Assembly: GCA_964605775.1 (NCBI GenBank)
Contig: CAZSDU010000001.1
Location: forward strand, 282,283-346,282
DNA: 64,000 nucleotides
DNA from: an uncultured Prolixibacteraceae bacterium
GTDB lineage: Bacteria; Bacteroidota; Bacteroidia; Bacteroidales; FEN-979
Reading direction: 5' to 3'
Part shown: positions 40,996 to 56,584 of the stretch, in pieces
Position numbering within the stretch: the first letter of the stretch is position 1
Layout: each line of letters starts with the position of its first letter
Notes under the pieces: generated by a model
Seen by the model: only the letters and a program-made list of their open reading frames with translations
Told to the model about the DNA's origin: nothing
Database searches by the model: none
Translations under genes and position numbers: made by a program

Positions 40996-42930
40996 TTATT
41001 CAATGGTCAGTTCAAAAATTTCTCCCAAGATATCATTTTTCGGAAAAGGAATATTATCCTGGGCATAAGGAGATCCTATCCACCACTTGGTATTATGGAA
41101 TTCCTGGGTAATAATCAGCAACATCTGATTGTTGGGCACGGAAGTCACTTTATCGTCCTCATATCCCACGACCCGGAGTTTTTCTTTCGAAGGGCCGATC
41201 CTCCATATAATTCGATCGGGCTGCCAGTCGATCTGAAAATAATAAAAGTCGGATCCGAAAAGTTCATCATCACTTTCCAGTGATTTTTCGGTCAAAGCCC
41301 GGTAATTTTTATCCCAGCGGTGAGCCCAGAAAGTATTGCCTTCAAAATTCACCGGCCAGCATCCATCATGGAAATCAGACGGTTGCCAGCAGGCCATGTC
41401 CCAGTTAGTACAAGCTACGATGATTTTATCGTCATTGGCCGTAATTTCTTCGGGGAATGGCACGTTCCAGCCTGACAGCCGAAACTGATCGTCGTTCCCA
41501 TGGTTATACGCCGGTGGAAGTACCCAGGAGGGACAGTATGGAACGGTTTTCAGGATTTCAAAATCGATTTCAGAATATCCGACATTTTTAATTCTTTGAT
41601 CCTGATGTCCACCGTAATAATTGGCCATATATCCGCCGTTGTTGCAATCCCGTCTCAGGTTCCAGTCACCCTGGTCCATGGTGAGCAGCCAGATCGCATT
41701 GGTGATACCATTCCACATATGATTTTCATTCAGCAATTCGGTGAGTTTTGCCTTGACTGTCCATTTCCCGTAGGTCATCCCATGACGCGTGATAATACCT
41801 ACATTTTGTTTCTGCCATTTCCCAAATTCAGCTTTAGGGTTACGGATGGAAATTTTATGGTTGACCGGATCAGAAATGACCGTTTCACAGGGACGGGCAG
41901 CTGTTGTAGCCGTCACGGAAATCAGCTCTTCCTTGCGGTAAAACCTTTTATTCCAATTGTAATCCAGCCTTGAGTAATGATCTTTCAGCACATCTGCAAT
42001 CACCGGGATATGATCCATTTTTGTCGAGGGATCAACATAGTGGATGAACTGCTCAAAGGCTGCATTTTTATACAGGGCAGAATCCTGGCCACAGAGATCA
42101 TTTCCGTATTGATCGGCAATCTCCTTGCTGAAATTATTCGGATTGATATAAATCCCTCCGCCCAGGTCGGGTTTAGCCATCACCTGAAGCTGACCGGGAT
42201 ACTCCTGGACTACGGTATTGTGAAGCCTGCATCCATCCCCGTACTTAAAATAAAAATAGGGGTTTATAAAACCCTCAGGGGATTGTAAGCCGATGTTTTG
42301 AATATAATCAGGGATGCGTTTTTCGCCCATGGTTTCAGCCACGGTCACCACCAGTAAAAAACTATATTTGCCAACCCTGGGGTTTCTTTTCCAGCGGTCA
42401 TTTTTCCCGTTCAGGTAATAACGTTGTTCATCCCTTGGATTGCCAACGATCCTGAACTTGTTTGTAATCTTATGAAATTGATCATCGGCAGGAATAACAT
42501 CCGTTTTTAACATGGTAGTCGCTACATTTTCCCAGCTTCCGTAAAAATTTTCCCAGGCATAAGGATGCTGTTTTGCTGTGTCCTGATCAGACCTTTCATG
42601 AAATTTATAGGATTCATTCTGGTAATAAATTTTATAATAAAATTCTGCTGCCTCTTTTCCGGTATTTTTTATACTGAACTCCAGGTCAAAAAAACCATCT
42701 GCCGTTTGACGGGATGAGGGAATGACAAACCCATTTCCCTTGGCGCCTGAATAATCGAGGAACAATGGCTTTCCGGTATTCCAGTTGGTCAGAGGGTTAA
42801 AATCTCTGATGATAAACTGATCCGTAACCACCTGGGCAGCGTTGGGATTCTGATTACAGCCGGAATGTATTCCTGTCATCAGCAATATCCCCATGAGTAT
42901 CAATGTCAAGTTCATTTTCATTCGGTTCAT
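40996..42930 (-). CDS. Lipoprotein with C-terminal GH16-like (concanavalin-fold glucanase) domain
   Basis: 644 aa. Lipobox GIHSGC. NAIWLL, GYSEIDFEILK (ExDxE at nt 41557-41571) and YYFQIDWQPDRIIWRIG match GH16 hallmarks. The N-terminal ~370 aa are unassigned. Confidence 0.6.
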   Translation of the reverse strand: MNRMKMNLTLILMGILLMTGIHSGCNQNPNAAQVVTDQFIIRDFNPLTNWNTGKPLFLDYSGAKGNGFVIPSSRQTADGFFDLEFSIKNTGKEAAEFYYKIYYQNESYKFHERSDQDTAKQHPYAWENFYGSWENVATTMLKTDVIPADDQFHKITNKFRIVGNPRDEQRYYLNGKNDRWKRNPRVGKYSFLLVVTVAETMGEKRIPDYIQNIGLQSPEGFINPYFYFKYGDGCRLHNTVVQEYPGQLQVMAKPDLGGGIYINPNNFSKEIADQYGNDLCGQDSALYKNAAFEQFIHYVDPSTKMDHIPVIADVLKDHYSRLDYNWNKRFYRKEELISVTATTAARPCETVISDPVNHKISIRNPKAEFGKWQKQNVGIITRHGMTYGKWTVKAKLTELLNENHMWNGITNAIWLLTMDQGDWNLRRDCNNGGYMANYYGGHQDQRIKNVGYSEIDFEILKTVPYCPSWVLPPAYNHGNDDQFRLSGWNVPFPEEITANDDKIIVACTNWDMACWQPSDFHDGCWPVNFEGNTFWAHRWDKNYRALTEKSLESDDELFGSDFYYFQIDWQPDRIIWRIGPSKEKLRVVGYEDDKVTSVPNNQMLLIITQEFHNTKWWIGSPYAQDNIPFPKNDILGEIFELTIE

Positions 42931-44714
42931 TTTTGAGGAAATGAATATAATTCCATAACATCCGGAAGTTCTGTTGTTTCTTCTTTATTCGAACCCAGGA
43001 TAAAGTAAGTGGTATTCCCCTTAACGGTATATTTTCCGGGAATTATCCGGAGTGATTCATAGTACTTTGGGTTATGATCCTGATTAAAACCATGAAAATC
43101 GACATTGGCCTGAATCTGAAAAGCAGTATCATTAAATTTCAGTTGTTTCAGGTCGAACCGCCAGTCGCGGTTATAGCGTAATATCATCCGGCCCTGTCCG
43201 GGGTCTGAGGCTGAAGTAAAAAAACGATCCGTTGGTTTCAGGGTGTCAAGTCCAATGGTTTTCCCAAAATATTCATATTTTTTAGGATATTTCGATTCAA
43301 ATTTTCCGCTGCTTGCATGATACCAACGAAGGGAATAATCGGATTTTCCGGTCTTTTTATTTTTCACGACCGACAGGATGACATCCAGGTCTGGATCGGA
43401 GAGAAAATGATCCACGGATAAGCCGATTTCGAAAACTGAACTGTCCCATTCCCTGACCGGATTCCGGTCGCCTTCGGCCAGGATTTTCCAGGAGTCCTTT
43501 TTAGCCTGGTCAAATTGCAGCATTTTCCAATATCCATGATCCATCAGCAAGAGCAATTCGCTGATTCCATCCTGATTAAAATCTCCGGGAAAAACCCATT
43601 GATTATCCTTCATATAAATCCCCGACAGCTTTTTATCGAAAGACTGCCAGACCATATTAAAAATGATTTCTGTTTCTGAAGCACAGGGGTCTTTGCTGTT
43701 GGTAAGCTTACCCAGCATCAACCCATTTTCAGAAGCCATGAGCAGTTGTTCTCCCTGGCCGGCCAAAAATTTTCCCTTCCAGATATTGCCGGATGTAAAA
43801 AAAGGCAAGGCTGCTGACGGGATATGGAAAGGAATTTTCCGAATCTCGATTGAATTCGCACAGAATGATAAAAGGAATGGCTTTGATCCTTGTGGGATAA
43901 GCAGCAACTCCTCCAAACGCTTTTGATCAATAAGAAAATCACCGGAAATGATTTTGTCAAGGGGGGAAATTTCCTTCATTTTTTTCCAGCTTTGAACCCT
44001 TTCAAGCGCTACCGTGGGAAATGGCGGATAGTTAAAGCGGGGAGTAAAGGAGGTTTCTTTCGTCATGTCCACGAAAACGGTATCTCCACGCCGGTCAGGC
44101 TGACTTCCGAAGACCATATTATAATCATCCACGAGAATATCCGTCGGACTGTTATTCCAGAAATAAATTTTCAGTTTATATTCAGGTTTGAATTGTACTT
44201 CACTGAGGTCGAGTTTCCCGCTGATTTTAAACCATTTCCCGCGTGGAATTCCCTTACCGGACAATCCGACCCCTTTCCAGCAGATATTCACGCCCAATTC
44301 GTTTGAAGCTGCCAGAACAAAAGTAGCATTGACTTCCTTGGTTGTTGGGAAAACATAAACCCAGGTACTGAGGGAAACTTCTTTCAGGTTTTCCATTCCT
44401 AGCTCTCTGGCAGTACGCTCAATCGCCGCGCCAAAACTGTTTTGCCCGAAAGCTTTGGCCGAAAAGAGACCAGAATGAGCTATTCCTTTATAAAAACCAT
44501 CGGGTGTTGCTTTCCCGGGATCCACTTCAAAATCAAAATACAGGCTATGAGGCGCCTGAGCATGGATTTTTTGAGAATTGAGAAATTCTTTTTCGGAAGA
44601 GGAAGGAATACTGACCACTTTGTTCAAGGGAAAATATTTCAGACCAAGTGCGACAGCAATAATGCTAATGGTCATGGTGGCAGCGATGGCAATTAACCAT
44701 TTCTTTTTTTTCAT
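42927..44714 (-). CDS. Membrane-anchored hypothetical protein with CBM-like beta-sandwich and FG-GAP/VCBS-like motif
   Basis: 595 aa. N-terminal TM anchor, a sandwich-like region ending ...DILVDDYNMVFG, and an FPGDFNQDGISELLLL motif. ATGA overlap with the GH16-like gene. Confidence 0.5.
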   Translation of the reverse strand: MKKKKWLIAIAATMTISIIAVALGLKYFPLNKVVSIPSSSEKEFLNSQKIHAQAPHSLYFDFEVDPGKATPDGFYKGIAHSGLFSAKAFGQNSFGAAIERTARELGMENLKEVSLSTWVYVFPTTKEVNATFVLAASNELGVNICWKGVGLSGKGIPRGKWFKISGKLDLSEVQFKPEYKLKIYFWNNSPTDILVDDYNMVFGSQPDRRGDTVFVDMTKETSFTPRFNYPPFPTVALERVQSWKKMKEISPLDKIISGDFLIDQKRLEELLLIPQGSKPFLLSFCANSIEIRKIPFHIPSAALPFFTSGNIWKGKFLAGQGEQLLMASENGLMLGKLTNSKDPCASETEIIFNMVWQSFDKKLSGIYMKDNQWVFPGDFNQDGISELLLLMDHGYWKMLQFDQAKKDSWKILAEGDRNPVREWDSSVFEIGLSVDHFLSDPDLDVILSVVKNKKTGKSDYSLRWYHASSGKFESKYPKKYEYFGKTIGLDTLKPTDRFFTSASDPGQGRMILRYNRDWRFDLKQLKFNDTAFQIQANVDFHGFNQDHNPKYYESLRIIPGKYTVKGNTTYFILGSNKEETTELPDVMELYSFPQK

Positions 44715-44723
44715 GATATCAGG

Positions 44724-47700
44724 TTAGTGTATGCAAATCATACTTTTTGTTTCTGAATGATCTGCAGTTATCATCCGGCAGGAATAAATTCCGGCAGGGA
44801 TGTTATTCCCCGATTCATCCGTCCCATCCCAAAAGAGAAGATGATCTCCTGCATTTTCTTTGTTCTGATGAAATGTGCGGATTCTGACACCCTGGGCATT
44901 AAATATTTCAAAGGTAATCTCTTCCTGCTTTGCTAATTTATATTGAATATGGGTTGAAGATATAAACGGATTGGGATAATTACCCTTTAAAAAAGTCAAT
45001 CCATTTGTATTGGGGGAACCCGAGGAGATCGGAAAGGGAATATGCATTAATACCGGTAAGACTGCCTGGTTGTTAAAATTATCATGTACAATAATATTAC
45101 AGTAATAATCGCCGGGAGGCAGGTTGTCGGGTTGAAAAGTAAGATTTACTTCTGCCGTTTCATTCCTATACAAACTACCTGAAATATCAGATAAGGATAG
45201 CCAGTTATTCCATAATCCGGAATTTTTAATTCGGATAAACCCGAACTTATCATGTGGGGTATTACCTGTTTGATCACCATGAATATTATAGACTAGGAAA
45301 ACGTCGTATTGGTATGACAGATTAATCGTTCCGCTTAGGGTGGAAACGGCTGACTCTCCTGGTTTCACAACCCCGGAACCACTGCTTGTTTCTCCATGCC
45401 AGTTTTGAGGAAGCCCTGTACCTGGCGTTCCTTGGTATACCAGGTTTCCCAGGGATCCTCCTGTAAAATCTGTTGCTGTATTAAGTTCCACCCCGGGAGG
45501 AAAATCAACTTTGACATGGCTTACATTTTCGTTGTCACTACTCTGGTTGTGTAAAATCAAATCCCAGCTGTACAAGTTTCCAGGTACAAAATATTCGCTT
45601 GAGCATATAAGATTTGAGTTTGACTGATTGGAAGGATACCAGGCTTTGTTATTGGCCAGGGTATCAAAAACCATGGTTGAAAAATTCAGTATTCCACCAC
45701 CATCATTCGTGATAGAAAAATGATCTGTTGAAGTTTGTCCTATTTCCAGTGTTTTTTCAAACATCTTCGGAAAAACAGCTATAACTGGTTGTGCACCTGC
45801 AATGAGGGGAAACTGAATAAAATCCAGAAAAGCACAATCGTATCCATTGCTAACAGAATAATCTTTATGATAAGTCCAGTTGAAGGTGTGATATCCTTTC
45901 TCAATAGGAAAAGAAACCTGGCTCCAGTCTCCTTCGCCATCCCATCTTTGCATTTCAAAATTATCAATAGAGAAGGCCAGATAGTCGTAATTGAATGTTC
46001 CGGCAGGATCGTGTTCACAGGAAACTTTTTTCCAAAAACTTAATATTCCATCTTCCAGGACGCAAACACTTAAAAATAAAGTCGATTCCTGATCATCAAA
46101 GATCCATCCGGAGCGTCCTGAATAATTTCCCTCATACCTGATTACTGGATCAAATCCCCATGGGGCAGCACCCGAAAAATTCCAGTCGAATTTATTGTAA
46201 GTGGCTGTTTCAAAATCTTCGATGATATCGCCGGAATACAGAAAAAGGCTATCCGAGGTATTGAGGTTCTGACTTGTTTGAAGGAAAGTATTCATTTTGT
46301 AAAGGTGTTCGAATGGAACTGTGGAAGAAGCGGTAACATGAAAGAGAATATTATTGGAAGAATCCGGTTTAAGCATAGAAAGAAATCCGGTATCCACGTC
46401 AATGGTCAGGTTGGTATCGGCTGCTATAAGTGTGACATGAATGCCGGAAGCTGAAACACTTCCATTATTTTTCAAGGTTACAAGCAGATCAGCAGATTCT
46501 CCCGGATCAAGCCGGTGGTTGTCGCCATCATCCAGTTCGACTTTTGAAAAATGAAATTCCGGGGCGAAAGCGACCAGATGAATATCAATGTTGCTGTTCT
46601 GTTGCGCTGTTATCATATTCATTGGGATGATAAACAGATGATTGTTTGGGATATCAGGAGAAATCAGCATCCCGAATGCATGGGGAATGGTCAGGGTCTG
46701 ACTTCCGTTAACCACAGGAACGATTATACTAGCATTGAGTAAGGTAACATAGGGGTCAGAATTTGTGATGGAAACCTGAATATTACTTACTGGCTGTGAG
46801 CTAAGATTGGTAAGGGAAAGATTAAGATAAGCCGTTTCTCCATATTCAATAATGCTATCATTTCCTGACTCAACCTGATAGCCTATAAGCAGGCCATTAG
46901 TATTAAACAATAAGGTCTTCGTGGAAGAAATATTGTCATTATCAGTGACTACGAAATTCACTGCTGTATTCTGGTATGGCAGGGTAGGTGTACCTGTAAA
47001 CAGACCATCTTCCGTAACCATCATCTCAGCAGGATAACCGCAGGAAGCAAACTGGTCCAGGGTATTGGGTGCGATGGCAGATGAATTGTTCAGGGCAGTA
47101 AACTGATAGTTTTTATTATCTCCTGAAGAAATACCCCCTGTCCAGGCAGTATTTGCCGGATAGACCATATCTCCGTAATAGAATTCTATTTTCCCGTTTG
47201 AATAAAATTTTACAGCAAAATTCAGGTTTGTGGATGACGTTCCGGTGATGAAAGTTTTCCAGCGTATCGTTGCTGATGTCGAATTTCCTTCATACCAGAT
47301 TCCTTGTCCCTGTGAAGGATTAATATACATATCGGTCATAAACGGGGCAACGATTGCGGATTGCCGGAAGAGTAGCGATTTGTCAATTAGATAAGGCCAG
47401 GTATAGGGCTGATCATCGAATAAAATATACCCATCAGCATAAATGTACAGTTTATTTATGTTTTTCTTAAAAAAGGGGAAATTAAAGTCCAGCAATTTTA
47501 TTGCAAAACCTGTATTGTTATTGGTCAGGATCAGTTGTTGTGCATTGACAGCAGGGAAAGATGCAGTGGTAATGGTTTCCGGATAATTCAGCCGGGCATC
47601 CCAACGATAGGGGGGGGTGCCATTATTTGCTGTAAGTTGAAAATTATATGGCTGGTAAAGCATTGCAGGCGGAAGGCTGCCCGACACGATGGCTGGTTTA

Positions 47701-49145
47701 TTGAAATTCACGGTATGATTAAGTCCCAGCCGTGTCATCGTATTATTCCCGATCAGAATATTTGTGCCAGAGTAAACATTGTATAAGGGGGACCCGGAAG
47801 TATAATCTATCAATGACCAGCCAACAATTGTTCCTGATGCCACATTGCCCGGATCGTTCTCCTGAACCTGAAGGAAGAATCTGGCAGGTTGTCCGCTGCT
47901 CAACTGTGAAAGCAAGGGTGTCAGGTCAAGTCCGAATTCAATGGTTTTATCGGCTTCTGAAGTTCCTCCCTGCATATAATAATCTCCCCCCTGATAATTA
48001 AAAACCGGAAAATCAAGAACCGTTGAAGGCAGGGTGGCACTAAGATCCGTATTCATTCCCACATTCACTTTCAGTTTATTTCGCGAGGTATGATTGAGGG
48101 TTATTTTCATTGTCAGTTTCGGATCGCATGATTGCTTGACATCAATCACATAGATGGTATGATTCCATATTCCCCCATACCCAATATTATCAGCAATGTT
48201 TTTATACATGGTATAGCAGAATCCCTGATTACACCATCCGGGACCCGCATAACCATTGGCGAATTTTAATCCTCCTATTTCCCAATCATGCATGTCAACG
48301 GCTCCATCCCCGTTGATATCAATGTTGTTGGTATATTTCCCGTCCCCGTTAAAATCATACCGGACAGAGTCATTGTATCCGCAGATGGTCCAGGCGTGTG
48401 AAGGACTGCCGCCCCAGTAGGTCTGAACATATTTCCCGGCTTCAGGAGTACCGGCAGGTAATACCGCTGAGGGGGTACTGAAATAGTTGCCATAAATATT
48501 TCCCACTCCGCCCACTACTGAACCATTCAGATGTTCGGCTAACCAGTATTTCAAGGTAAGCAATCCTTCCGGACTGTCGGCCCTGATGGCACTCACCGTA
48601 TTCAATCGGTTTTTCATGCCATTGTAATACTTATCATAACCTGAAATCCAGCGTAAATAACCACCGGTGTTCAATGCTCCGCCATAATCCGTAACATTCA
48701 TGGTGCCACAGGTTTTAATAATTTCCCAGGAGTCAAAAAAACTGACACCCTGATAATTGTTGGCATTGTTTAAGAAATCCCAGGCAAAATGCGTTGGATA
48801 TTGATTATTGGTGACATTGGCAGGTACATTGCGTAACCTGTCCACCTCATACGTGAAATTAAAAGCAATACTTGCCGATTGCCCGCATTCATAGCCAGAT
48901 TGATAGGTAATCGGACGAAAAAAAGGCTGGGAAGAGTTATCCACACTTTGAGGCAGTAAGGGAGCATAAGGACCTTTATAATGTTCAGGAAGATTGAGAA
49001 TGGGAATGTTGGAAAGGACAAAAAGCTCATCAGGAGTCAGGGAAAAAGGTTCAAGACCTTGCTGTGCCGGAAGGTCCTGTGCCTGAAGACCCATAAAAAG
49101 AAAAGACAACAAGGAGGTTATTCCGATGACAATGAGCTTCTTCAT
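44724..49145 (-). CDS. Giant T9SS-secreted multidomain protein with N-terminal papain-like cysteine peptidase domain
   Basis: 1473 aa. Signal peptide; Cys context YQSGYECGQSASIAF, His context SHAWTICGYND, FANGYAGPGW block. Dockerin/EF-hand-like DxNxDG repeats, Ig-like and CARDB-like regions, and a MAM-like sandwich. The C-terminal ~85 aa (NYPNPF...GIYSCRM...) match the T9SS sorting-domain pattern. Confidence 0.8.
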   Translation of the reverse strand: MKKLIVIGITSLLSFLFMGLQAQDLPAQQGLEPFSLTPDELFVLSNIPILNLPEHYKGPYAPLLPQSVDNSSQPFFRPITYQSGYECGQSASIAFNFTYEVDRLRNVPANVTNNQYPTHFAWDFLNNANNYQGVSFFDSWEIIKTCGTMNVTDYGGALNTGGYLRWISGYDKYYNGMKNRLNTVSAIRADSPEGLLTLKYWLAEHLNGSVVGGVGNIYGNYFSTPSAVLPAGTPEAGKYVQTYWGGSPSHAWTICGYNDSVRYDFNGDGKYTNNIDINGDGAVDMHDWEIGGLKFANGYAGPGWCNQGFCYTMYKNIADNIGYGGIWNHTIYVIDVKQSCDPKLTMKITLNHTSRNKLKVNVGMNTDLSATLPSTVLDFPVFNYQGGDYYMQGGTSEADKTIEFGLDLTPLLSQLSSGQPARFFLQVQENDPGNVASGTIVGWSLIDYTSGSPLYNVYSGTNILIGNNTMTRLGLNHTVNFNKPAIVSGSLPPAMLYQPYNFQLTANNGTPPYRWDARLNYPETITTASFPAVNAQQLILTNNNTGFAIKLLDFNFPFFKKNINKLYIYADGYILFDDQPYTWPYLIDKSLLFRQSAIVAPFMTDMYINPSQGQGIWYEGNSTSATIRWKTFITGTSSTNLNFAVKFYSNGKIEFYYGDMVYPANTAWTGGISSGDNKNYQFTALNNSSAIAPNTLDQFASCGYPAEMMVTEDGLFTGTPTLPYQNTAVNFVVTDNDNISSTKTLLFNTNGLLIGYQVESGNDSIIEYGETAYLNLSLTNLSSQPVSNIQVSITNSDPYVTLLNASIIVPVVNGSQTLTIPHAFGMLISPDIPNNHLFIIPMNMITAQQNSNIDIHLVAFAPEFHFSKVELDDGDNHRLDPGESADLLVTLKNNGSVSASGIHVTLIAADTNLTIDVDTGFLSMLKPDSSNNILFHVTASSTVPFEHLYKMNTFLQTSQNLNTSDSLFLYSGDIIEDFETATYNKFDWNFSGAAPWGFDPVIRYEGNYSGRSGWIFDDQESTLFLSVCVLEDGILSFWKKVSCEHDPAGTFNYDYLAFSIDNFEMQRWDGEGDWSQVSFPIEKGYHTFNWTYHKDYSVSNGYDCAFLDFIQFPLIAGAQPVIAVFPKMFEKTLEIGQTSTDHFSITNDGGGILNFSTMVFDTLANNKAWYPSNQSNSNLICSSEYFVPGNLYSWDLILHNQSSDNENVSHVKVDFPPGVELNTATDFTGGSLGNLVYQGTPGTGLPQNWHGETSSGSGVVKPGESAVSTLSGTINLSYQYDVFLVYNIHGDQTGNTPHDKFGFIRIKNSGLWNNWLSLSDISGSLYRNETAEVNLTFQPDNLPPGDYYCNIIVHDNFNNQAVLPVLMHIPFPISSGSPNTNGLTFLKGNYPNPFISSTHIQYKLAKQEEITFEIFNAQGVRIRTFHQNKENAGDHLLFWDGTDESGNNIPAGIYSCRMITADHSETKSMICIH

Positions 49146-49175: not shown

Positions 49176-50648
49176 TTAAGGATTTTGTTTTGATTGGTCA
49201 TACAGATAATTCGCATCACGGTAAAGCATGGTATCCAGGGATACATTCCGCTCCTTTGCTTTCTTTTCAACAGCTGCAAGCCATTCCGGATTCTGATATA
49301 TGGACAGGACCAGATACATAATGCTGTCCTGGCGTGTTTTCCCTTTTATCTCATGATAATTATTGTAGAAGGTATATTCTGCATCATTTCGGATAATTTC
49401 TTCGAGGGGGCGACGTTGCTTCTTGGCCTTTTTCACCAAAAACCTGAACCAGTTTCTATCATTACGGATTTCATTCTCCGTATTATAAACCTTATCATCC
49501 CTGGTTTCCGGATGAAAAGCCAGGTAAGCTTCATCGGCAAAATTCCAGAATCCATTATGCATGTTGATTTCAGAGATCATTAAAAGGATGACATCGAACT
49601 TCTTATAGGTTGAAAGCAATTCTGATTTATCCACGTAAACAGGAGGATTATTATGATGATAGGGGTATAATTTGTTGTTGTAATACCAGTATTCCTGGTT
49701 TTTAAACAACTGATCGGAGATTTTTCCCTTGCAGAAATTCACATAATAGCTATCGGCGATAACCAATACCGATAAATTTCTTTTTTCCGGATCGTTTTCA
49801 ATTTTTAAAACCGGATAGGCTCCAAGGGTTTTGGGCAGGGGCAAACAAAGATTGAGTACCTCGCCGATATCGTTATCGGTCAGCCGGGCTGTATCGGAAA
49901 GCACTATCCGCTCGATGGCAATTTCCGGAAGCCTGGAGGATGTTCTTTGTTCGATATATCTTTTCAGGGTGTCTGCAGCAAGGGCTACCCCATAGATACT
50001 CCAGTGCATCCCATATTTCGGGAAAACCGGGTAACGGCATGTATCCCTGACCAGTTTGAAATAGTCATTCAAATCAAGGAAGGGTAACCCCAGTGAAACT
50101 GCTTTCGTTTTAATCCATTCATAGTTGGACAAAGTTCGTTTTCGCGGATGATAGCGACCCGGAATAAACTCGGGCATTACGCTGGCTTTACCGGGTTCAA
50201 AAACAAAGATCAGTTCAATATGATGCGACTTCAGACTGTCGTACACATTTTTTAATCGGGACATCTTTTTTTCCAGTGGTTTTTCCCCGATAAAAAATTC
50301 ACCTGTATATTCGAAAATATAATCCTCTTCATACAGGTAATCATTTTTCCCGGCGATAAAACCCTCGGCATGACAGATCCTGAATAAGCTGTAATCCAAT
50401 TGATTGCGTAATCTCAACAAGGATTTTCTAAACCCTATATGATGTTCCATCCGATCCATAAACTCCTGCTGAAATTCCCCCCTGAACCATCTGTCCCAGG
50501 TAAAACGCTTTAGTTCCGGTGGCTCCACCTTGTCGATAAAAAATCCATGAAGGGGTTTTTCATCCACCCCTTTGAAGACATGCTGTAAACCAAAGGCCAG
50601 TATGAAGATAAGCACAATCCAACAAACCAGCTTTTTTACCCTGCGCAT
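49176..50648 (-). CDS. AlgJ/AlgX-like (permuted SGNH-like) putative O-acyltransferase partner, paralog 1
   Basis: 490 aa with an N-terminal signal anchor. Shares with 52152..53300 the blocks GKN.YL.EE, P.K.S, PK.G.HWS.YG and the block LVIADSYY (FIGDSFY in the paralog). Adjacent to the MBOAT gene. Confidence 0.5.
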   Translation of the reverse strand: MRRVKKLVCWIVLIFILAFGLQHVFKGVDEKPLHGFFIDKVEPPELKRFTWDRWFRGEFQQEFMDRMEHHIGFRKSLLRLRNQLDYSLFRICHAEGFIAGKNDYLYEEDYIFEYTGEFFIGEKPLEKKMSRLKNVYDSLKSHHIELIFVFEPGKASVMPEFIPGRYHPRKRTLSNYEWIKTKAVSLGLPFLDLNDYFKLVRDTCRYPVFPKYGMHWSIYGVALAADTLKRYIEQRTSSRLPEIAIERIVLSDTARLTDNDIGEVLNLCLPLPKTLGAYPVLKIENDPEKRNLSVLVIADSYYVNFCKGKISDQLFKNQEYWYYNNKLYPYHHNNPPVYVDKSELLSTYKKFDVILLMISEINMHNGFWNFADEAYLAFHPETRDDKVYNTENEIRNDRNWFRFLVKKAKKQRRPLEEIIRNDAEYTFYNNYHEIKGKTRQDSIMYLVLSIYQNPEWLAAVEKKAKERNVSLDTMLYRDANYLYDQSKQNP

Positions 50649-50666
50649 TGACCCGTCTCCCCGTGA

Positions 50667-52124
50667 TTAAAATCTGAAATAAATGAAAGGATTGAACCCT
50701 GAAGAAGTTATGGCTGCTTCGCTGAGGATAAACAGTAAGATCGCCAGTACCGACATGGTTAGCATAGTTAAATTTTCAGGGATAGTATAAAGGCGGTTGA
50801 TCCAGCCCTCCATTTTTTTTCTTACTCCCCAGAAAGAGAAAATCATGGCCAGGCTCAGTATGGTCCAGAATTTCGGGTTCAGCCAGACTTCATTTTCCGC
50901 AGATCGGAAGGCAAACATCCTGGCTATGAAAGCCTGGGCATCCGGCAGGGTTTCCGAACGAAAAATGACCCATCCAAGGGTAAGAATAAAAAAAGTAAGG
51001 AGTATACTGGGGACTTTCCCGATCTTTTTCAGATATTTTAACAGAAAAAGCCTGTCGATGATCAGGAAAAGACCCTGGAAAACTCCCCAGGCAATAAAGG
51101 TCCAAGCCGCACCATGCCATAAACCACAAAGGAGAAAAGTGACAGAAGTGGCAATAAGGTAAATAATTTTATCAGCACGCAGCCCGAGATAACGTTCTTT
51201 GGGCAATTTCCTGGAAGTCGCATAGGCCAGGGGTAAAAACACATAATCGCGGAACCAGAAAGAAAGGGTGATATGCCAGCGTCTCCAGAACTCAGTGATA
51301 CTTTGGGAAATATAGGGACTATTAAAATTCTCCGGAAGTTTGAATCCCATCATCCTGGCCAGGCCTATGGCCATGTCGGAATATCCTGAAAAGTCGAAAT
51401 AAATCTGAAAAGTATAGGCAATGGCCCCTAACCAGGCCAGTCCGCTGGAGAGATCTTGCAGATCAAGACTGAATATTTCGTTGACGGTCAGGCCGAGGAC
51501 ATCGGCAATCAGGACCTTTTTTGAGAGTCCGATGACAAAGCGGTAAAACCCGATTAAGCGGTCGTCGATTGAATTCCGGTTTTGCCTATCCTCAATCTGG
51601 CTTGCAATATGTCCGGGTCTTACGATCGGGCCAGCCAGTAACTGGGGGAACATGAAAACATATAAAGCATAATCCCAGAAACTTTTAAACCCCGTGAATT
51701 GTTTTTTATAGATGTCGAGCGTGCAAGCCAGTTTCTGGAATGTAATGAATGAAATGCCTACCGGTAAAGCGATTTTTGTCCAGGGGCCGGGATTGATTCC
51801 GAACCATACCTCCATCAGCTGAAACTGATCAACAAAAAAATTCATGTACTTGAAGTACATCAGCAGTCCAAGATTCAACAGAACAGAAATCCAGAATAAC
51901 ACCCTGCGTTTTTTTCCACCGGTGGTAATCATCCCCCGGATCAGCAGATAATCCAGGATTACGGATCCGGCAATATAAAACACGAATTTCGGCGCTCCCC
52001 AGGCATAGAAAAAAACACTAACCAACAGGATAAAACCGTTTTTGAACTGTCCGGCTAATAAAAAATAAATGATCAGGAAAACCGGTAAGAAATAAAGTAA
52101 AAACAGACTACTGCTGAAAACCAT
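50667..52124 (-). CDS. MBOAT-family membrane O-acyltransferase (AlgI/DltB/PatA-like)
   Basis: 485 aa, multi-TM. FWRRWHITLSFWFRDYVF and GLWHGAAWTF (conserved His) blocks. Confidence 0.9.
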   Translation of the reverse strand: MVFSSSLFLLYFLPVFLIIYFLLAGQFKNGFILLVSVFFYAWGAPKFVFYIAGSVILDYLLIRGMITTGGKKRRVLFWISVLLNLGLLMYFKYMNFFVDQFQLMEVWFGINPGPWTKIALPVGISFITFQKLACTLDIYKKQFTGFKSFWDYALYVFMFPQLLAGPIVRPGHIASQIEDRQNRNSIDDRLIGFYRFVIGLSKKVLIADVLGLTVNEIFSLDLQDLSSGLAWLGAIAYTFQIYFDFSGYSDMAIGLARMMGFKLPENFNSPYISQSITEFWRRWHITLSFWFRDYVFLPLAYATSRKLPKERYLGLRADKIIYLIATSVTFLLCGLWHGAAWTFIAWGVFQGLFLIIDRLFLLKYLKKIGKVPSILLTFFILTLGWVIFRSETLPDAQAFIARMFAFRSAENEVWLNPKFWTILSLAMIFSFWGVRKKMEGWINRLYTIPENLTMLTMSVLAILLFILSEAAITSSGFNPFIYFRF

Positions 52125-52151
52125 AACTTGGTGTTTATTTATTGATCTTTG

Positions 52152-53300
52152 TCACTTGACCTCTTGTGTTGTGTCCCTCATTAATGCCAGCACCCGGTCA
52201 ACAAACCAGTAGCCTGCATTACCATACCCAGCATTGGTTTGAATGAAAACAATTACCTTCTGTCTGTCGATAGACGCTTGAAGGTTTAAGTCGCTGACCA
52301 TCTCTTTTTGCTTGATCCCATTGAGATAAACATCATGATCATAGTACCAGAATTCTTCGTTGCTAAAAATGTTTTTAATATAACCTGGTTCAGACCAGCA
52401 AAAGTAGAAACTATCGCCGATAAATAAGGCAGATGGCTTCTTTTCAGTATTGGTTTCCCGGTAATGAAAATGAGGATAGGCAAGCGGCGGATGAGGGATG
52501 TTCCAGATCAGGTTAAGGGCCATATAGATATCTTTATCGTAACTTCGCGCGGACCTGCTGTTTTCAATACTATCAAGCACAAGTTCAGTCATTGGAGTTT
52601 CCAGCTTCCTGCTTAAATAATGTATCAAAGAATCCATCGCAAGATATGCTCCATAGGAGCTCCAGTGAATCCCTGTTTTCGGGTACAACATAAATCGGGA
52701 AGTATCTTTGATTTTCAGGAACCATGCATTGAAATCAATAAAATTGACGCCTGCTTTTTCCAACCCCTGCTTATACCATTGATAGTTGGTGGTATCCCTC
52801 CTGGCTTTCAAATACCGGTCAGGTATTTTTTCAGAATAAAAGCTGCCTTTATCTGGAGCAAAAATAACAAGCATCAGGATTTTTTTTTCATTCCAAAGGA
52901 GTTCCTGAAGTTCCTTAAACTGCGAAACCCTGGCCTCAATTTTTTGTCTCCCGAAGAAATCATGACCCAGATAGGCTTTGATATATGGTTCTTCGAATAA
53001 ATAATTGTTTTTGCCAACAATGATTTTATGGGCATGAGGAACTCCAAATAAGCTGAAATCAATTTGGTTGAACAGTCGAACAAGATCAGATTTAAATGGA
53101 ATTCTGCTTTCAATATAGGGCGTCAGGCTATCCTGGAAAGAACAATCGAAAAATCCCCTGGTCGTAAAAACGGGCATGATTTCTGACGGCTGATATCCGT
53201 CCAGGGAATTGGAAGAGAACAGGGAGAAATTATCCTGAACTGCAGGCAAACACAACAAAAAAACAAGAATTGAAAAACAGATTTTTTTTACGGTAATCAT
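52152..53300 (-). CDS. AlgJ/AlgX-like (permuted SGNH-like) putative O-acyltransferase partner, paralog 2
   Basis: 382 aa with a signal peptide. Clear paralog of 49176..50648 (KTGIHWSSYG, FIGDSFY). Confidence 0.5.
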   Translation of the reverse strand: MITVKKICFSILVFLLCLPAVQDNFSLFSSNSLDGYQPSEIMPVFTTRGFFDCSFQDSLTPYIESRIPFKSDLVRLFNQIDFSLFGVPHAHKIIVGKNNYLFEEPYIKAYLGHDFFGRQKIEARVSQFKELQELLWNEKKILMLVIFAPDKGSFYSEKIPDRYLKARRDTTNYQWYKQGLEKAGVNFIDFNAWFLKIKDTSRFMLYPKTGIHWSSYGAYLAMDSLIHYLSRKLETPMTELVLDSIENSRSARSYDKDIYMALNLIWNIPHPPLAYPHFHYRETNTEKKPSALFIGDSFYFCWSEPGYIKNIFSNEEFWYYDHDVYLNGIKQKEMVSDLNLQASIDRQKVIVFIQTNAGYGNAGYWFVDRVLALMRDTTQEVK

Positions 53301-53323: not shown

Positions 53324-54058
53324 TTATTTCAGGTATTTCCGGTCAAAAACATTGTATTTCAGAAGGCACCACAGGGCGCGGAAAGCATCTTTCATGCCGA
53401 TTTTTTTCCCTTCCTCATAGGTTCGTCCATAATAGGAAATTCCGACTTCATAAATCCTGATCTTCGGGAAACGGGCTATTTTACTGGTCACTTCAGGTTC
53501 AAACCCGAATCGCTTTTCGTTCAGGTAAAGTTTTTTGATCATATCTGCCCTGAACAGTTTATAACAGGTTTCCATATCCGTCAGGTTCAGGTTGGTGAAC
53601 ATATTGGAAACGAAGGTCAGGATTTTGTTCCCGATGGAATGCCAAAAGAAGAGGATGCGATGCGGTCTTCCTCCCATAAAACGGGATCCGAACACGACAT
53701 CGGCGAAGCCATCCAGCATGGGTTTGAGCAGGATATTATATTCATTGGGATCGTATTCCAGATCGGCATCCTGGATGATGATAAAATCCCCTCCGGCTTC
53801 CCGGATGCCTCGATGGATGGCAGCTCCTTTCCCCTGATTGGTGTCCTGGGTAAAAGAAAGGATTTTTTCTCCCGGATGTTCGCGGATGTATGCTGAAATC
53901 ACCTTTTCCGTTTCATCGCTGCTGTGGTCGTTAACAATGATGATTTCTTTCTGCACTCCGGCGATAAGCTCAACTGCCCTTACTTTATCCAAAATAAGAT
54001 GGATGGTATTCGCTTCGTTGTAGGCAGGGATGATGATACTCAGTATGGTCAAGCTCAT
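53324..54058 (-). CDS. Family 2 glycosyltransferase, DPM1/GtrB-like (polyprenyl-phosphate sugar synthase type)
   Basis: 244 aa. [21 protein letters not shown] (DxD) and GSRF blocks. No TM segments. Confidence 0.85.
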
Positions 54059-54067
54059 AGAACGCGT

Positions 54068-56584
54068 TTATTCGTAATAATATATTCTTTTTACCCGCCG
54101 TGAAATCCCTGTCAGGATCTCATAGGGAATGGTATCCAGTTGTCTGGACAGTTCGGTCACAGGATGCTTCTCCCCGAAAATGATGACTTCATCTCCTTCC
54201 CTTACAGAGACAGGTTGCGGGGTTACAGATGAGGTCAGATCCGTGATATCGATCATGGTCAGGTCCATGCAGATATTGCCGATGATGGGAGCCGGCTCTC
54301 CATGAATATACAACGAGCCTCTGCCATTTCCCAGCCGTCGGTTCAGTCCATCGGCATATCCTATCGGAACGATGGCAATAACCTTGTCTTTCACGGCTTT
54401 TCCCATTCGGTTATACCCGATGGTATCGCCCGCGGCAATATGTTTGATCTGAGTGATCACCGATTTCAGGGTACTCACATTCCTCAGTTGTGATTGTTCT
54501 TCTTCATCCATGCCAATTCCATAAAGACCAATACCCAGCCTGACCATGTCCATCTGGGCATCAGGGAAACGGCTTATTCCTGCTGAATTAAGGATATGTC
54601 TGATGATTGGATAGCCAAACTGACTGGTTATCTTTCTGCTCATTTCATGAAAGACCCAGATTTGCTTACGGGTGAAAACTTCTTCTGAAGGATCTTCGCT
54701 GGCAGCCAGATGAGAGAAAACCGATTGGATATGGATCCCGGGTTTGTCATGAAGACCATGGATCAATTCATCGAGGTCGTCTTCCGTGAAACCCAGTCGA
54801 TGCATGCCGGTATCCAGTTTAATGTGAATGCGAATGGCCTCCTGGCCGGAAGTCTGATTTCTGGCAATGGCTTCTTCGAGAAGGCGAAGAATGCGGAAGT
54901 TATAGATTTCAGGTTCAAGGTTGTATTTCAGCAGAATGTCGAGGCTGTGTTCTTCCGGGCTCATGACCATGATGGGCAGTCTGATTCCTGCCTTTCTCAG
55001 TTCCACCCCTTCGTCGGCATAGGCTACGGCCAAATAGTCGGCATGATAAAACTGCAGTACGTTGGCAATCTCATAACTCCCGCTGCCATATGAAAATGCT
55101 TTGACCATGGCCATGACTTTTGTCACCGGATTCAGTTTGGCACGGAAATAATTCAGGTTATGAATCAGGGCATCAATATTTATTTCCAAAACCGTCTCAT
55201 GGGCTTTTTGCTGCAATACCCTGCTGATCTTTTCAAACTCAAAGATACGGGCACCTTTAAGTAAAATGCTTTCATTTTGGAAGGAGAATAGTGGAAAGTG
55301 GTTTAGAAAATCTTCGGTTTTTTCGAAAAAGAGCTTTGACATGCTGAATTTATCCGCATATTTGGAAATATCCCTGCCAATGCCAATGATCCGGTCAATT
55401 TTTTTCAATAAAAGCAATTCGGCAATTTCCTGATATAGTTCTTCCTTATTCCTTCCGCTTTGCAGAATATCGCTGAGGATGATGGTTTTTTTTCGCTGCT
55501 GGGTTTGTTGTTCCAGAAAATCAATGGCAATGCTTAGGGAATTGAAATCGGAATTATAACTATCGTTGATCAGTGAGCAATGATTGATGGCTTCTTTCAG
55601 TTCCAGGCGCATGGCAATGGGAGAAAGGGTAGCAGCGGCATGCAGTCTGTCAGACAGGCAGGGATGGCCCAGCACGATCATGGTGGCCCAGCAATGCATA
55701 ATGTTTTCAATGGAAGCATCATCGGTAAAAGGAAAGGAAAATGAATATTCCGCTGATAGATAACGCGCGGTAATGGTAGTTGACCGCATGGATTTATCAA
55801 TGGATGTTAAATGAAGATCAGCCTCATGGTTCCGGCTCCAGGTAAAGGTTTTCAGCCCTGAAAAGGCAGGATTCGATCGTAATGCTTCTGTGATCAGATG
55901 ATGATCGGCACAATATACGAGGGTTGCTGAATGAATGAAAAGCTTTAGTTTTTCTTCCACTTTCTCCCGATGTCCAGAAAAATGTTCATCATGGGCAGTT
56001 CCGATATTGGTAAAGATACCAATGGTGGGTTGGATGATGTGTTCCAGTCTGGTCATTTCCCCAGGTTTGGAAATTCCCGCTTCAAAGATGGCTAAGGTAT
56101 TCCAGGCTTCCATTTTCCACACGGATAGGGGGACTCCGATCTGGGAATTATAGCTTTTCGGGCTGCGGATGATTTTATAATCGCGGCAAAGCATCTGAAA
56201 CAGCCATTCTTTGACTATGGTTTTCCCATTGCTCCCGGTGATTCCGATCACCGGGAAAGAAAATTGGTTGCGTTGAAATGCTGCTAACTGTTGCAATGCC
56301 ATCAAGGTATCCGGGACTGCAATGAAACAGGCATCAGGCATCCGGTTTCTGTCATCCGCCATCTGGCTGATAAGAAAATTCCTGACTCCTTTCTCATACA
56401 GTTCTCCGATATAATGATGTCCATCATTACGGGAGGTGACCAGCGCGATAAAAAGGCATTGTTCAGGTTGTATCAGGCGGCGGCTGTCAATGAGTAATTC
56501 ACTGATGCCTGGATCATCCTGGCGAGTAGCATGCAATACCCCGCCGGTAATTCTGACAACCTCCGATACGGTCAGATGATTCAT
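54068..56584 (-). CDS. Bifunctional MurF-like ligase / alanine racemase fusion
   Basis: 838 aa. N-terminal Mur ligase (GITGSNGKT). The C-terminal half is Alr-like (MAMVKAFSYGSG PLP-Lys context, HLAASED, GYADG). Confidence 0.9.
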   Translation of the reverse strand: MNHLTVSEVVRITGGVLHATRQDDPGISELLIDSRRLIQPEQCLFIALVTSRNDGHHYIGELYEKGVRNFLISQMADDRNRMPDACFIAVPDTLMALQQLAAFQRNQFSFPVIGITGSNGKTIVKEWLFQMLCRDYKIIRSPKSYNSQIGVPLSVWKMEAWNTLAIFEAGISKPGEMTRLEHIIQPTIGIFTNIGTAHDEHFSGHREKVEEKLKLFIHSATLVYCADHHLITEALRSNPAFSGLKTFTWSRNHEADLHLTSIDKSMRSTTITARYLSAEYSFSFPFTDDASIENIMHCWATMIVLGHPCLSDRLHAAATLSPIAMRLELKEAINHCSLINDSYNSDFNSLSIAIDFLEQQTQQRKKTIILSDILQSGRNKEELYQEIAELLLLKKIDRIIGIGRDISKYADKFSMSKLFFEKTEDFLNHFPLFSFQNESILLKGARIFEFEKISRVLQQKAHETVLEINIDALIHNLNYFRAKLNPVTKVMAMVKAFSYGSGSYEIANVLQFYHADYLAVAYADEGVELRKAGIRLPIMVMSPEEHSLDILLKYNLEPEIYNFRILRLLEEAIARNQTSGQEAIRIHIKLDTGMHRLGFTEDDLDELIHGLHDKPGIHIQSVFSHLAASEDPSEEVFTRKQIWVFHEMSRKITSQFGYPIIRHILNSAGISRFPDAQMDMVRLGIGLYGIGMDEEEQSQLRNVSTLKSVITQIKHIAAGDTIGYNRMGKAVKDKVIAIVPIGYADGLNRRLGNGRGSLYIHGEPAPIIGNICMDLTMIDITDLTSSVTPQPVSVREGDEVIIFGEKHPVTELSRQLDTIPYEILTGISRRVKRIYYYE

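Follow-up and report, generated by a model that had tools for sequence, protein, structure and literature searches.

A large Bacteroidota subfamily of AlgJ/AlgX-like MBOAT partners with glycine in place of the triad aspartate, represented by two paralogs in a Prolixibacteraceae locus

Pairs of a membrane-bound O-acyltransferase (MBOAT) with an SGNH-type protein are a general bacterial route for acylating polymers outside the cytoplasm, and such acylations bear on resistance to lysozyme, on evasion of immunity and on the properties of biofilms. To our knowledge, all characterised partners of the AlgX fold (AlgJ, AlgX, WssI and PatB1) use the Asp of a DxH motif. Described here is an MBOAT gene (50667..52124; 485 aa; DltB/AlgI/PatA-like) placed between two paralogous genes, A (49176..50648; 490 aa) and B (52152..53300; 382 aa), in a stretch of 64,000 nucleotides from an uncultured Prolixibacteraceae bacterium (contig CAZSDU010000001.1, positions 282,283 to 346,282), called the window below. 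All features of the window are given in window positions and lie on the minus strand. Paralog B has an anchor and an AlgJ-like permuted SGNH-like domain and carries no tail repeat, and in paralog A the anchor and AlgJ-like domain are followed by two helical repeats at the C-terminus.

In AlgJ, the catalytic triad is made up of D190, H192 and S288 (Baker et al., PMC4148444), and the substitutions D193A/H195A in the Pseudomonas aeruginosa enzyme abolish acetylation in vivo (PMC4148444). AlgX and PatB1 also use DxH, in the form DHHW (PMC9487903). As AlgJ, AlgX and PatB1 all rely on this Asp, the Gly found at its position in A and B departs from every characterised member of the fold group, and a literature search found no description of the Gly variant or its product. 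On the membrane side, PatA, aided by the invariant MBOAT His, auto-acetylates the Tyr in the FxYxxF motif at its own C-terminus, and PatB takes the acetyl-Tyr peptide as donor; an acyl-Tyr shuttle of this kind has been proposed for all MBOAT-SGNH pairs lacking DltX (Anderson et al., PMC12148441).

The homology of the 490-aa and 382-aa products over about 330 residues, proposed in the initial annotation, is far beyond chance: BLASTP aligns A and B over 330 residues at E 3e-63, with 35% identity and 53% positives, and the shared blocks listed there, including YGMHW/TGIHW, NL...AYP and LVIADSYY/FIGDSFY, all fall in this alignment. Both proteins start with a hydrophobic helix (residues 2-25 in the models), as expected from the N-terminal anchor assigned to them earlier. 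Pfam family ALGX (PF16822) matches A with 44.9 bits and B with 52.4 bits against a gathering threshold of 26.5, the matches covering profile positions 1-150 of 268 only. No unrelated family competes: neither protein has a DHHW (PF14286), DltD or unrelated-family match at E <= 1 in Pfam and NCBIfam.

The models agree with this placement. With alignments of 119 and 111 homologs as input, AlphaFold gave confident models, which reach pLDDT 92.5 and pTM 0.85 for B, and pLDDT 95.9 and pTM 0.89 for A. Searched against the PDB with Foldseek, both have AlgJ (4o8v) as best match (E 2e-10 for B, 1e-8 for A), and both match AlgJ 4o8v, AlgX (4knc, 7ula) and Bacillus cereus PatB1 (5v8d/e) with probability 1.0; the model of B also matches the DHHW protein 4nzk with probability 1.0. 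After these matches, the next structures stand at E > 0.06. The His block precedes the Ser block in both paralogs (H212, then S297 in B), which is the circularly permuted order. The SGNH-like fold and the permuted arrangement of AlgJ/AlgX type, suggested at first from motif order, are thus borne out by profile hidden Markov model (HMM) and fold searches as well.

A profile-profile comparison with AlgJ by hhalign gives a probability of 98.6% and E 5.5e-16 over 338 columns; AlgJ was here put together from two fragments, its numbering confirmed at GTSYS/S288, and the alignment is of low confidence in the C-terminal third. The juxtamembrane xDFSLF helix of the paralogs aligns to LDFKLF of AlgJ, and AlgJ signature motif 1, three hydrophobic residues followed by P-x-K (Franklin; Baker 2014), is present: P149/K151 in B (VIFAPDK) aligns to P132/K134 of AlgJ (AIVPAK), the counterpart in A being FVFEPGK. 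Y319/Y320 are invariant, and the alignment is of low confidence where the block III Tyr of AlgJ (Y348; Y328 in AlgX) would fall. The features of AlgX proper, a soluble periplasmic protein with a C-terminal carbohydrate-binding part, are not found, as A and B are both anchored and the tail of A consists of helical repeats without a match to a carbohydrate-binding module (CBM).

The active-site motif is G210-I-H212-W213 in B (52662..52673) and G213-M-H215-W216 in A (50001..50012). By phmmer, profile hmmsearch and hhalign, R-T-D190-T-H192-W193 of AlgJ lies over K-T-G210-I-H212-W213 of B and K-Y-G213-M-H215-W216 of A, so that three independent alignments agree with the early observation of Gly, instead of Asp, two residues before the His in both proteins. 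Of AlgJ motif 2, (R/K)TDTHW, A and B thus keep the His and Trp and lack the Asp. The predicted nucleophile Ser belongs to block I, D296-S297 in B (GDSFY; 52410..52415) and D299-S300 in A (ADSYY; 49749..49754), the former aligning to T287-S288 of AlgJ (GTSYS).

Gly at position 210 (B numbering, used also below) is invariant across A, B and 240 close homologs. An exhaustive profile search over 1.84 billion representatives, clustered at 50% identity, returned 10,332 clusters at E <= 1e-3, of which 1,819 reached E <= 1e-30, and conservation was counted in the 146 top-ranking of these representatives together with A and B. In these 148 sequences, position 210 is Gly in 143, Ser in four and Ala in one, and Asp in none. 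H212, N263, D296 and S297 are present in 148/148 each, D223 in 146/148 and K151 in 145/148; D255 is Asp in 143 and Glu in five, and D257 is Asp in 145 and Glu in three. The segment D255-K-D257 ... N263 (52512..52538) is near-invariant and family-specific and lies in a cap helix. Three canonical DNHW AlgX-like proteins encoded in the compared loci score 31-57 bits against the family profile and lack K151, D223 and the DxD. Because DNHW proteins score only in this range, the bit scores suggest that the 1,819 strong matches are essentially all of the Gly type. The change from Asp to Gly appears to be accompanied by a set of conserved residues of its own, and the assignment of A and B to a large AlgJ/AlgX-like subfamily of Bacteroidota, with Gly replacing the triad Asp, is supported by the sequence comparisons. 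Two of the DNHW proteins adjoin a second MBOAT (467 aa) in Fluviicola (L050 3258-5867, L058 3166-5722), a few kb from the GxHW pair; both active-site variants therefore occur in one genome.

How the His is supported in the GxHW proteins can be read in two ways. A Ser-His dyad, in which the carbonyl of the Gly orients the His, is likely the most economical reading. Many CE2 esterases are Ser-His dyads (PMC9487903), and in a survey of 30 SGNH-like structures, five had the His hydrogen-bonded by the main-chain oxygen of the residue at the acid position (PMC10792757). Alternatively, the acid may have been relocated, with D257 of B (D260 of A) as the best candidate since only Glu is tolerated there. 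By hhalign, D257 aligns with low confidence to D235 of AlgJ, which sits in a cap-domain cluster containing signature residues (Baker et al., PMC4148444). Among the other acidic residues, D223 is set eight residues deep in the helix that follows the His and is unlikely in this role on secondary-structure grounds, while still family-specific, and D296 was rejected, being the Asx-motif residue that canonically precedes the nucleophile (PMC10792757), Thr in AlgJ/AlgX.

The MBOAT matches PF03062 at 85.5 bits, DltB of the PDB (6bug) at E 8e-34, and TIGR04091 (DltB) at 178 bits, which is below the cutoff of that model. Its predicted catalytic His, H337 in LWHG (51114..51116), is invariant in 78 MBOATs of related loci. 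The protein ends in ...NPFIYFRF, so that an FxYxxF motif, F480-I-Y482-F-R-F485 (50670..50687), forms the exact C-terminus, and the same motif stands at the end of 78/78 full-length MBOATs from related loci, with Y482, H337 and H284 invariant. The elements of the MBOAT-SGNH acyl shuttle known from PatAB, namely the His, the C-terminal FxYxxF and an adjoining extracytoplasmic partner of SGNH type, are accordingly all present in the locus.

The module was compared in 85 loci. Bacteroidota account for all of them but three: one from a metagenome-assembled genome (MAG) with the label Chlorobiota and two for which the label is just 'bacterium'. The closest locus, from an uncultured Prolixibacteraceae MAG, has 81% identity and identical gene order. 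The family also has cultured carriers, among them Crocinitomix catalasitica (ATCC 23190), Brumimicrobium glaciale, Fluviicola taffensis and Draconibacterium. It adjoins an MBOAT in 81/85 loci. In distant relatives, at 34-38% identity and mostly from Flavobacteriales, the locus is a bare pair of MBOAT followed by partner, with no further conserved neighbour. The Bacteroidales/Prolixibacteraceae clade shows the order MurF-alanine racemase fusion (MurF-Alr), family 2 glycosyltransferase (GT2), one to five GT-C-like proteins, one to three partners, MBOAT and often another partner. The GT-C-like membrane proteins amount to 141 genes in 54 loci; the example from L001 matches PMT_2 above cutoff, and a sequence search of the PDB with the GT-C-like protein gave no match.

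The sandwich of one MBOAT between two partners, noted at the outset, is therefore present in the window, but as a reduced local arrangement, since the relatives L001 and L008 carry an additional GT-C gene and paralog; what is conserved is an MBOAT with one to four partners. In these relatives (L001 4188-8512, L008 8114-12438; 67-75% identical), a 626-aa GT-C-like gene and a third ALGX paralog of 430 aa with one repeat are located between GT2 and MBOAT, and both genes are missing from the window and from L007. Three to five GT-C-like genes (~480-650 aa) stand in tandem upstream of ALGX genes in L012, L013, L017, L019 and L038, and such arrays beside an MBOAT module are an unusual expansion for a Gram-negative locus.

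In a neighbour-joining tree of 130 partners from the compared loci, the proteins fall into groups that differ in length and position. The B-type (~382-404 aa) follows GT-C/GT2 and contains B of the window; the C-type (~430 aa) is immediately upstream of the MBOAT; another stable group (~430-457 aa) is immediately downstream of it; and the A-type (~487-496 aa) contains A of the window. Single partners of simple MBOAT pairs form a group of their own. A and B thus belong to old, separate orthologous groups. The key sites are kept in 16/16 B-type proteins each, except D255 (Asp in 15, Glu in one), and in 22-24 of 24 A-type proteins. The initial annotation had left three options for two partners of one MBOAT, namely two acceptor positions, two acceptors, or one catalytic and one scaffolding copy; the last is disfavoured because all orthologous groups keep the catalytic and family-specific residues. 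A single partner is found in 26/48 full-length loci, so that one such protein suffices, and partner number rises with the count of GT-C-like genes (Spearman 0.41, p 0.004, without phylogenetic correction).

The C-terminal helical extension of ~110 aa noticed earlier in A only (about residues 380-490 in the model) consists of two copies of a ~45-aa helical repeat with the consensus YYIENSIRNNREWFRFVVKKAKEQNIPLDEMIRLDAEYTYEQS. By repeat HMM and internal alignment, repeat 1 covers residues 388-433 (49350..49487) and repeat 2 residues 441-486 (49191..49328). The number of repeats, from 0 to 4, explains the length classes of 516 family members, with median lengths of 386 aa (no repeat), 433 aa (one), 488 aa (two), 544 aa (three) and 592 aa (four). 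The repeat has no relative in Pfam or the PDB, and it may extend reach from the membrane, bind the acceptor or serve in docking.

In the window, the module is part of a string of co-directional minus-strand genes separated by gaps of -34 to 30 nt, in the order leucyl aminopeptidase, PdxA, MurF-Alr, GT2, B, MBOAT and A, followed by a 1473-aa protein and by proteins of 595, 644 and 805 aa. The spacers are 27 nt from B to the MBOAT and 18 nt from the MBOAT to A. A promoter/terminator scan gave signals at chance level, with a method that does not model Bacteroidota promoters. The GT2 gene (53324..54058; 244 aa), 23 nt upstream of B, encodes a protein of the polyprenyl-phosphate sugar synthase type (DPMS/ArnC/GtrB-like); it matches PF00535 at 106.5 bits, DPMS of the PDB (5mlz) at E 5e-15, and ArnC. 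GT2 is a recurrent companion of the module, present in 46/85 loci. Its similarity to DPMS, ArnC and GtrB covers their catalytic domain, and the protein, being shorter than they are, appears to lack their C-terminal membrane helices. Directly upstream of GT2 is the 838-aa MurF-Alr (54068-56584), whose neighbourhood is kept in 29 related loci and is probably housekeeping synteny.

Downstream of A by 30 nt, the 1473-aa protein (44724..49145) ends in a type IX secretion system (T9SS) sorting domain (TIGR04183, 39.4 bits). It is a conserved neighbour of A-type paralogs, following them directly in ~20 loci, and the A-type is nearly always directly upstream of this gene even if separated from the MBOAT; the gene does not occur in L007, the closest relative. 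For the N-terminal 750 residues of the protein, PDB sequence and profile searches and Pfam scans gave no relative. Across 15 orthologs, Q82 and C87 (QSGYECGQSA), H250 (SHxWTICGYND) and N258/D259 are invariant, an order of residues in the N-terminal half reminiscent of papain-like peptidases, and residues 264-287 include a calcium-binding-like stretch, DxNxDG...DINGDG. The 595-aa and 644-aa proteins (40996-44714) have no family match and are kept together behind the T9SS gene as a conserved pair; the 644-aa family occurs in 13 loci, and the 595-aa protein has a hydrophobic segment at its N-terminus. The 805-aa membrane protein (38548-40965) has a sulfatase-fold domain whose nearest relatives are the lipoteichoic acid synthase LtaS and the phosphoglycerol transferase OpgB (weak, far below cutoffs). 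Its gene belongs to the same string as the module, yet it is found in only the 5 closest of the 85 loci.

Taken together, the MBOAT with A and B probably forms an O-acyl transfer system of the PatA-PatB/AlgI-AlgJ kind, in which two parallel enzymes modify an envelope glycan. In the proposed mechanism, the MBOAT would take an acyl group, by analogy most likely acetyl, from cytoplasmic acyl-CoA and would use H337 to load it onto its own Tyr482 in the C-terminal FIYFRF at the periplasmic side. Acyl-Tyr482 would then serve as donor to the predicted nucleophiles S297 of B and S300 of A, and the two enzymes, each held by a single N-terminal helix, would pass the acyl group to hydroxyls of the envelope glycan. 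Their active sites, devoid of the canonical Asp, would operate as a Ser-His dyad via the carbonyl of Gly210/213 or with a recruited Asp. A and B would work in parallel, each modifying its own acceptor position or its own glycan, rather than as a catalytic and a scaffolding copy, and the two tail repeats of A could be a modular element for reach or binding.

As for the acceptor, the GT2 type and the GT-C proteins imply that, in the fuller clusters, lipid-linked sugars feed a glycosylation in the periplasm, and an envelope glycan (lipopolysaccharide-linked, capsular or glycoprotein glycan) is therefore the likely target. Peptidoglycan O-acetylation was considered for the MurF-Alr neighbour and found no positive support, this neighbour being put down to housekeeping; in Bacteroides, O-acetylpeptidoglycan clusters contain PatA with Ape1-like canonical SGNH proteins (PMC1199599). 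Several observations weigh against the proposed system. The Asp is required in AlgJ in vivo (PMC4148444), and its loss could mean altered chemistry. The correlation with GT-C genes is modest and not corrected for phylogeny, and the window itself has no GT-C gene. In several loci, other genes split the A-type gene from the MBOAT, yet it invariably stands beside the T9SS gene, so that A could serve another module.

Two of the alternatives divide the work differently between A and B. In a relay as in alginate acetylation, one paralog would load from the MBOAT and the other alone would modify the polymer. Only for alginate has an MBOAT with two AlgX-fold partners been well studied, AlgJ neither binds nor acetylates alginate while AlgX does both (PMC4148444, PMC9487903), and the extra C-terminal module of A parallels the CBM of AlgX. 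However, A and B are both membrane-anchored like AlgJ, neither has a CBM, and many related loci have a single partner with 0 or 1 repeat, the number of partners varying from 1 to 4. The relay is thus rather unlikely, and parallel, specialised terminal transferases are favoured because a single partner suffices and partner number rises with GT-C count. A division into writer and eraser, with one O-acyltransferase and one esterase like PatB and Ape1, would have its precedent in O-acetylpeptidoglycan clusters, including those of Bacteroides, that pair an MBOAT with SGNH paralogs of opposite activity (PMC1199599), and both AlgJ and AlgX have esterase activity in vitro (PMC4148444). This division has a low probability, as A and B share an identical full set of conserved active-site and cap residues, no feature separates a hydrolase from a transferase, and both are tethered close to the MBOAT side of the periplasm.

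The other alternatives concern the chemistry itself. If the loss of the Asp had left non-catalytic binding or scaffolding subunits, transfer would fall to another enzyme. The Asp is needed in AlgJ in vivo (PMC4148444) and all members of the family are without it, but His and Ser are invariant in 148/148 sequences and in all four orthologous groups, which is unexpected for inactive proteins; simple MBOAT pairs are accompanied by no other SGNH-type gene, and acid-less SGNH enzymes are known to be active (PMC9487903, PMC10792757). Dead enzymes are hence very improbable. Transfer of a different acyl group, or of an aminoacyl group such as the D-alanyl transferred by DltB-DltD, onto a phosphoglycerol-type polymer is suggested by the DltB proteins being the best named relatives of the MBOAT, and by the LtaS/OpgB-like gene and the MurF-Alr fusion within the gene string. 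Such a donor is unlikely, given that no DltA, DltC or DltX-like genes were seen, that the LtaS-like gene occurs in 5/85 loci only and MurF-Alr is probably housekeeping, and that the MBOAT itself carries the shuttle peptide, an arrangement of acetyl-CoA users and not of Dlt systems (PMC12148441).

The acyltransfer class of an MBOAT plus AlgX-fold partners, to which the locus belongs, is known; new is a subfamily set apart by Gly for Asp, by conserved residues of its own, by a modular tail repeat and by variable paralog arrays. These natural Asp-less variants make the tuning between transfer and hydrolysis directly testable, the combination of tail repeats and multi-paralog arrays gives a handle on how one MBOAT feeds several transferases, and the locus points to an uncharacterised modification of an envelope glycan in environmental Bacteroidota. 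A wider and rather doubtful proposal is that the GxHW proteins are a distinct, Bacteroidota-wide class of MBOAT partners with a re-engineered active site (triad Asp lost, D223, DxD and N263 gained) that, as arrays of one to four specialised enzymes and with the polyprenyl-phosphate sugar synthase GT2, up to five GT-C glycosyltransferases and sometimes an LtaS-like enzyme, build and tailor an undescribed, periplasmically assembled envelope glycopolymer. If so, the glycopolymer would be a Gram-negative analogue of teichoic-acid tailoring, and it might anchor or coat the adjoining T9SS cargo.

Among known systems, AlgI-AlgJ(-AlgX) of Pseudomonas (4o8v, 4knc, 7ula) resembles the locus in having an MBOAT with more than one AlgX-fold partner, and AlgJ shares with A and B the N-terminal anchor, the xDFxLF helix, PxK, HW, the order of His before Ser and the G-x-S-aromatic block. 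A and B differ from AlgJ in having Gly for the triad Asp of (R/K)TDTHW and (G/A/S)DS instead of GTS in block I; the GxHW family has in addition invariant D223, DxD and N263 and the helical tail repeats, and identity to AlgJ is ~12-17%. The alginate system differs further by its CBM, AlgF and alginate synthesis genes, which are absent here. PatA-PatB of Neisseria and Campylobacter, which O-acetylates peptidoglycan, is alike in the catalytic His of the MBOAT and the Tyr of a C-terminal FxYxxF feeding a periplasmic Ser enzyme, whereas PatB is an SGNH protein of canonical order with a Ser-His-Asp triad, and not of the AlgX fold as A and B. PatA1-PatB1 of Bacillus (DHHW family, 5v8e) O-acetylates a secondary cell wall polysaccharide; PatB1 has the permuted fold, the MBOAT pairing and an Asp before the Ser of block I (KDS, compared with GDS/ADS here), but also TDHHW with the catalytic Asp200 and an Arg as oxyanion residue (DxRY), whereas A and B have GxHW and no Pfam DHHW match. 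The acid-less SGNH hydrolases (Streptomyces scabies esterase 1ESC, NanS 3PT5, many CE2 esterases) have a Ser-His active site with a His that lacks Asp side-chain support, as A and B would in the dyad reading; there a main-chain oxygen supports the His, in soluble hydrolases of canonical order rather than in permuted MBOAT partners.

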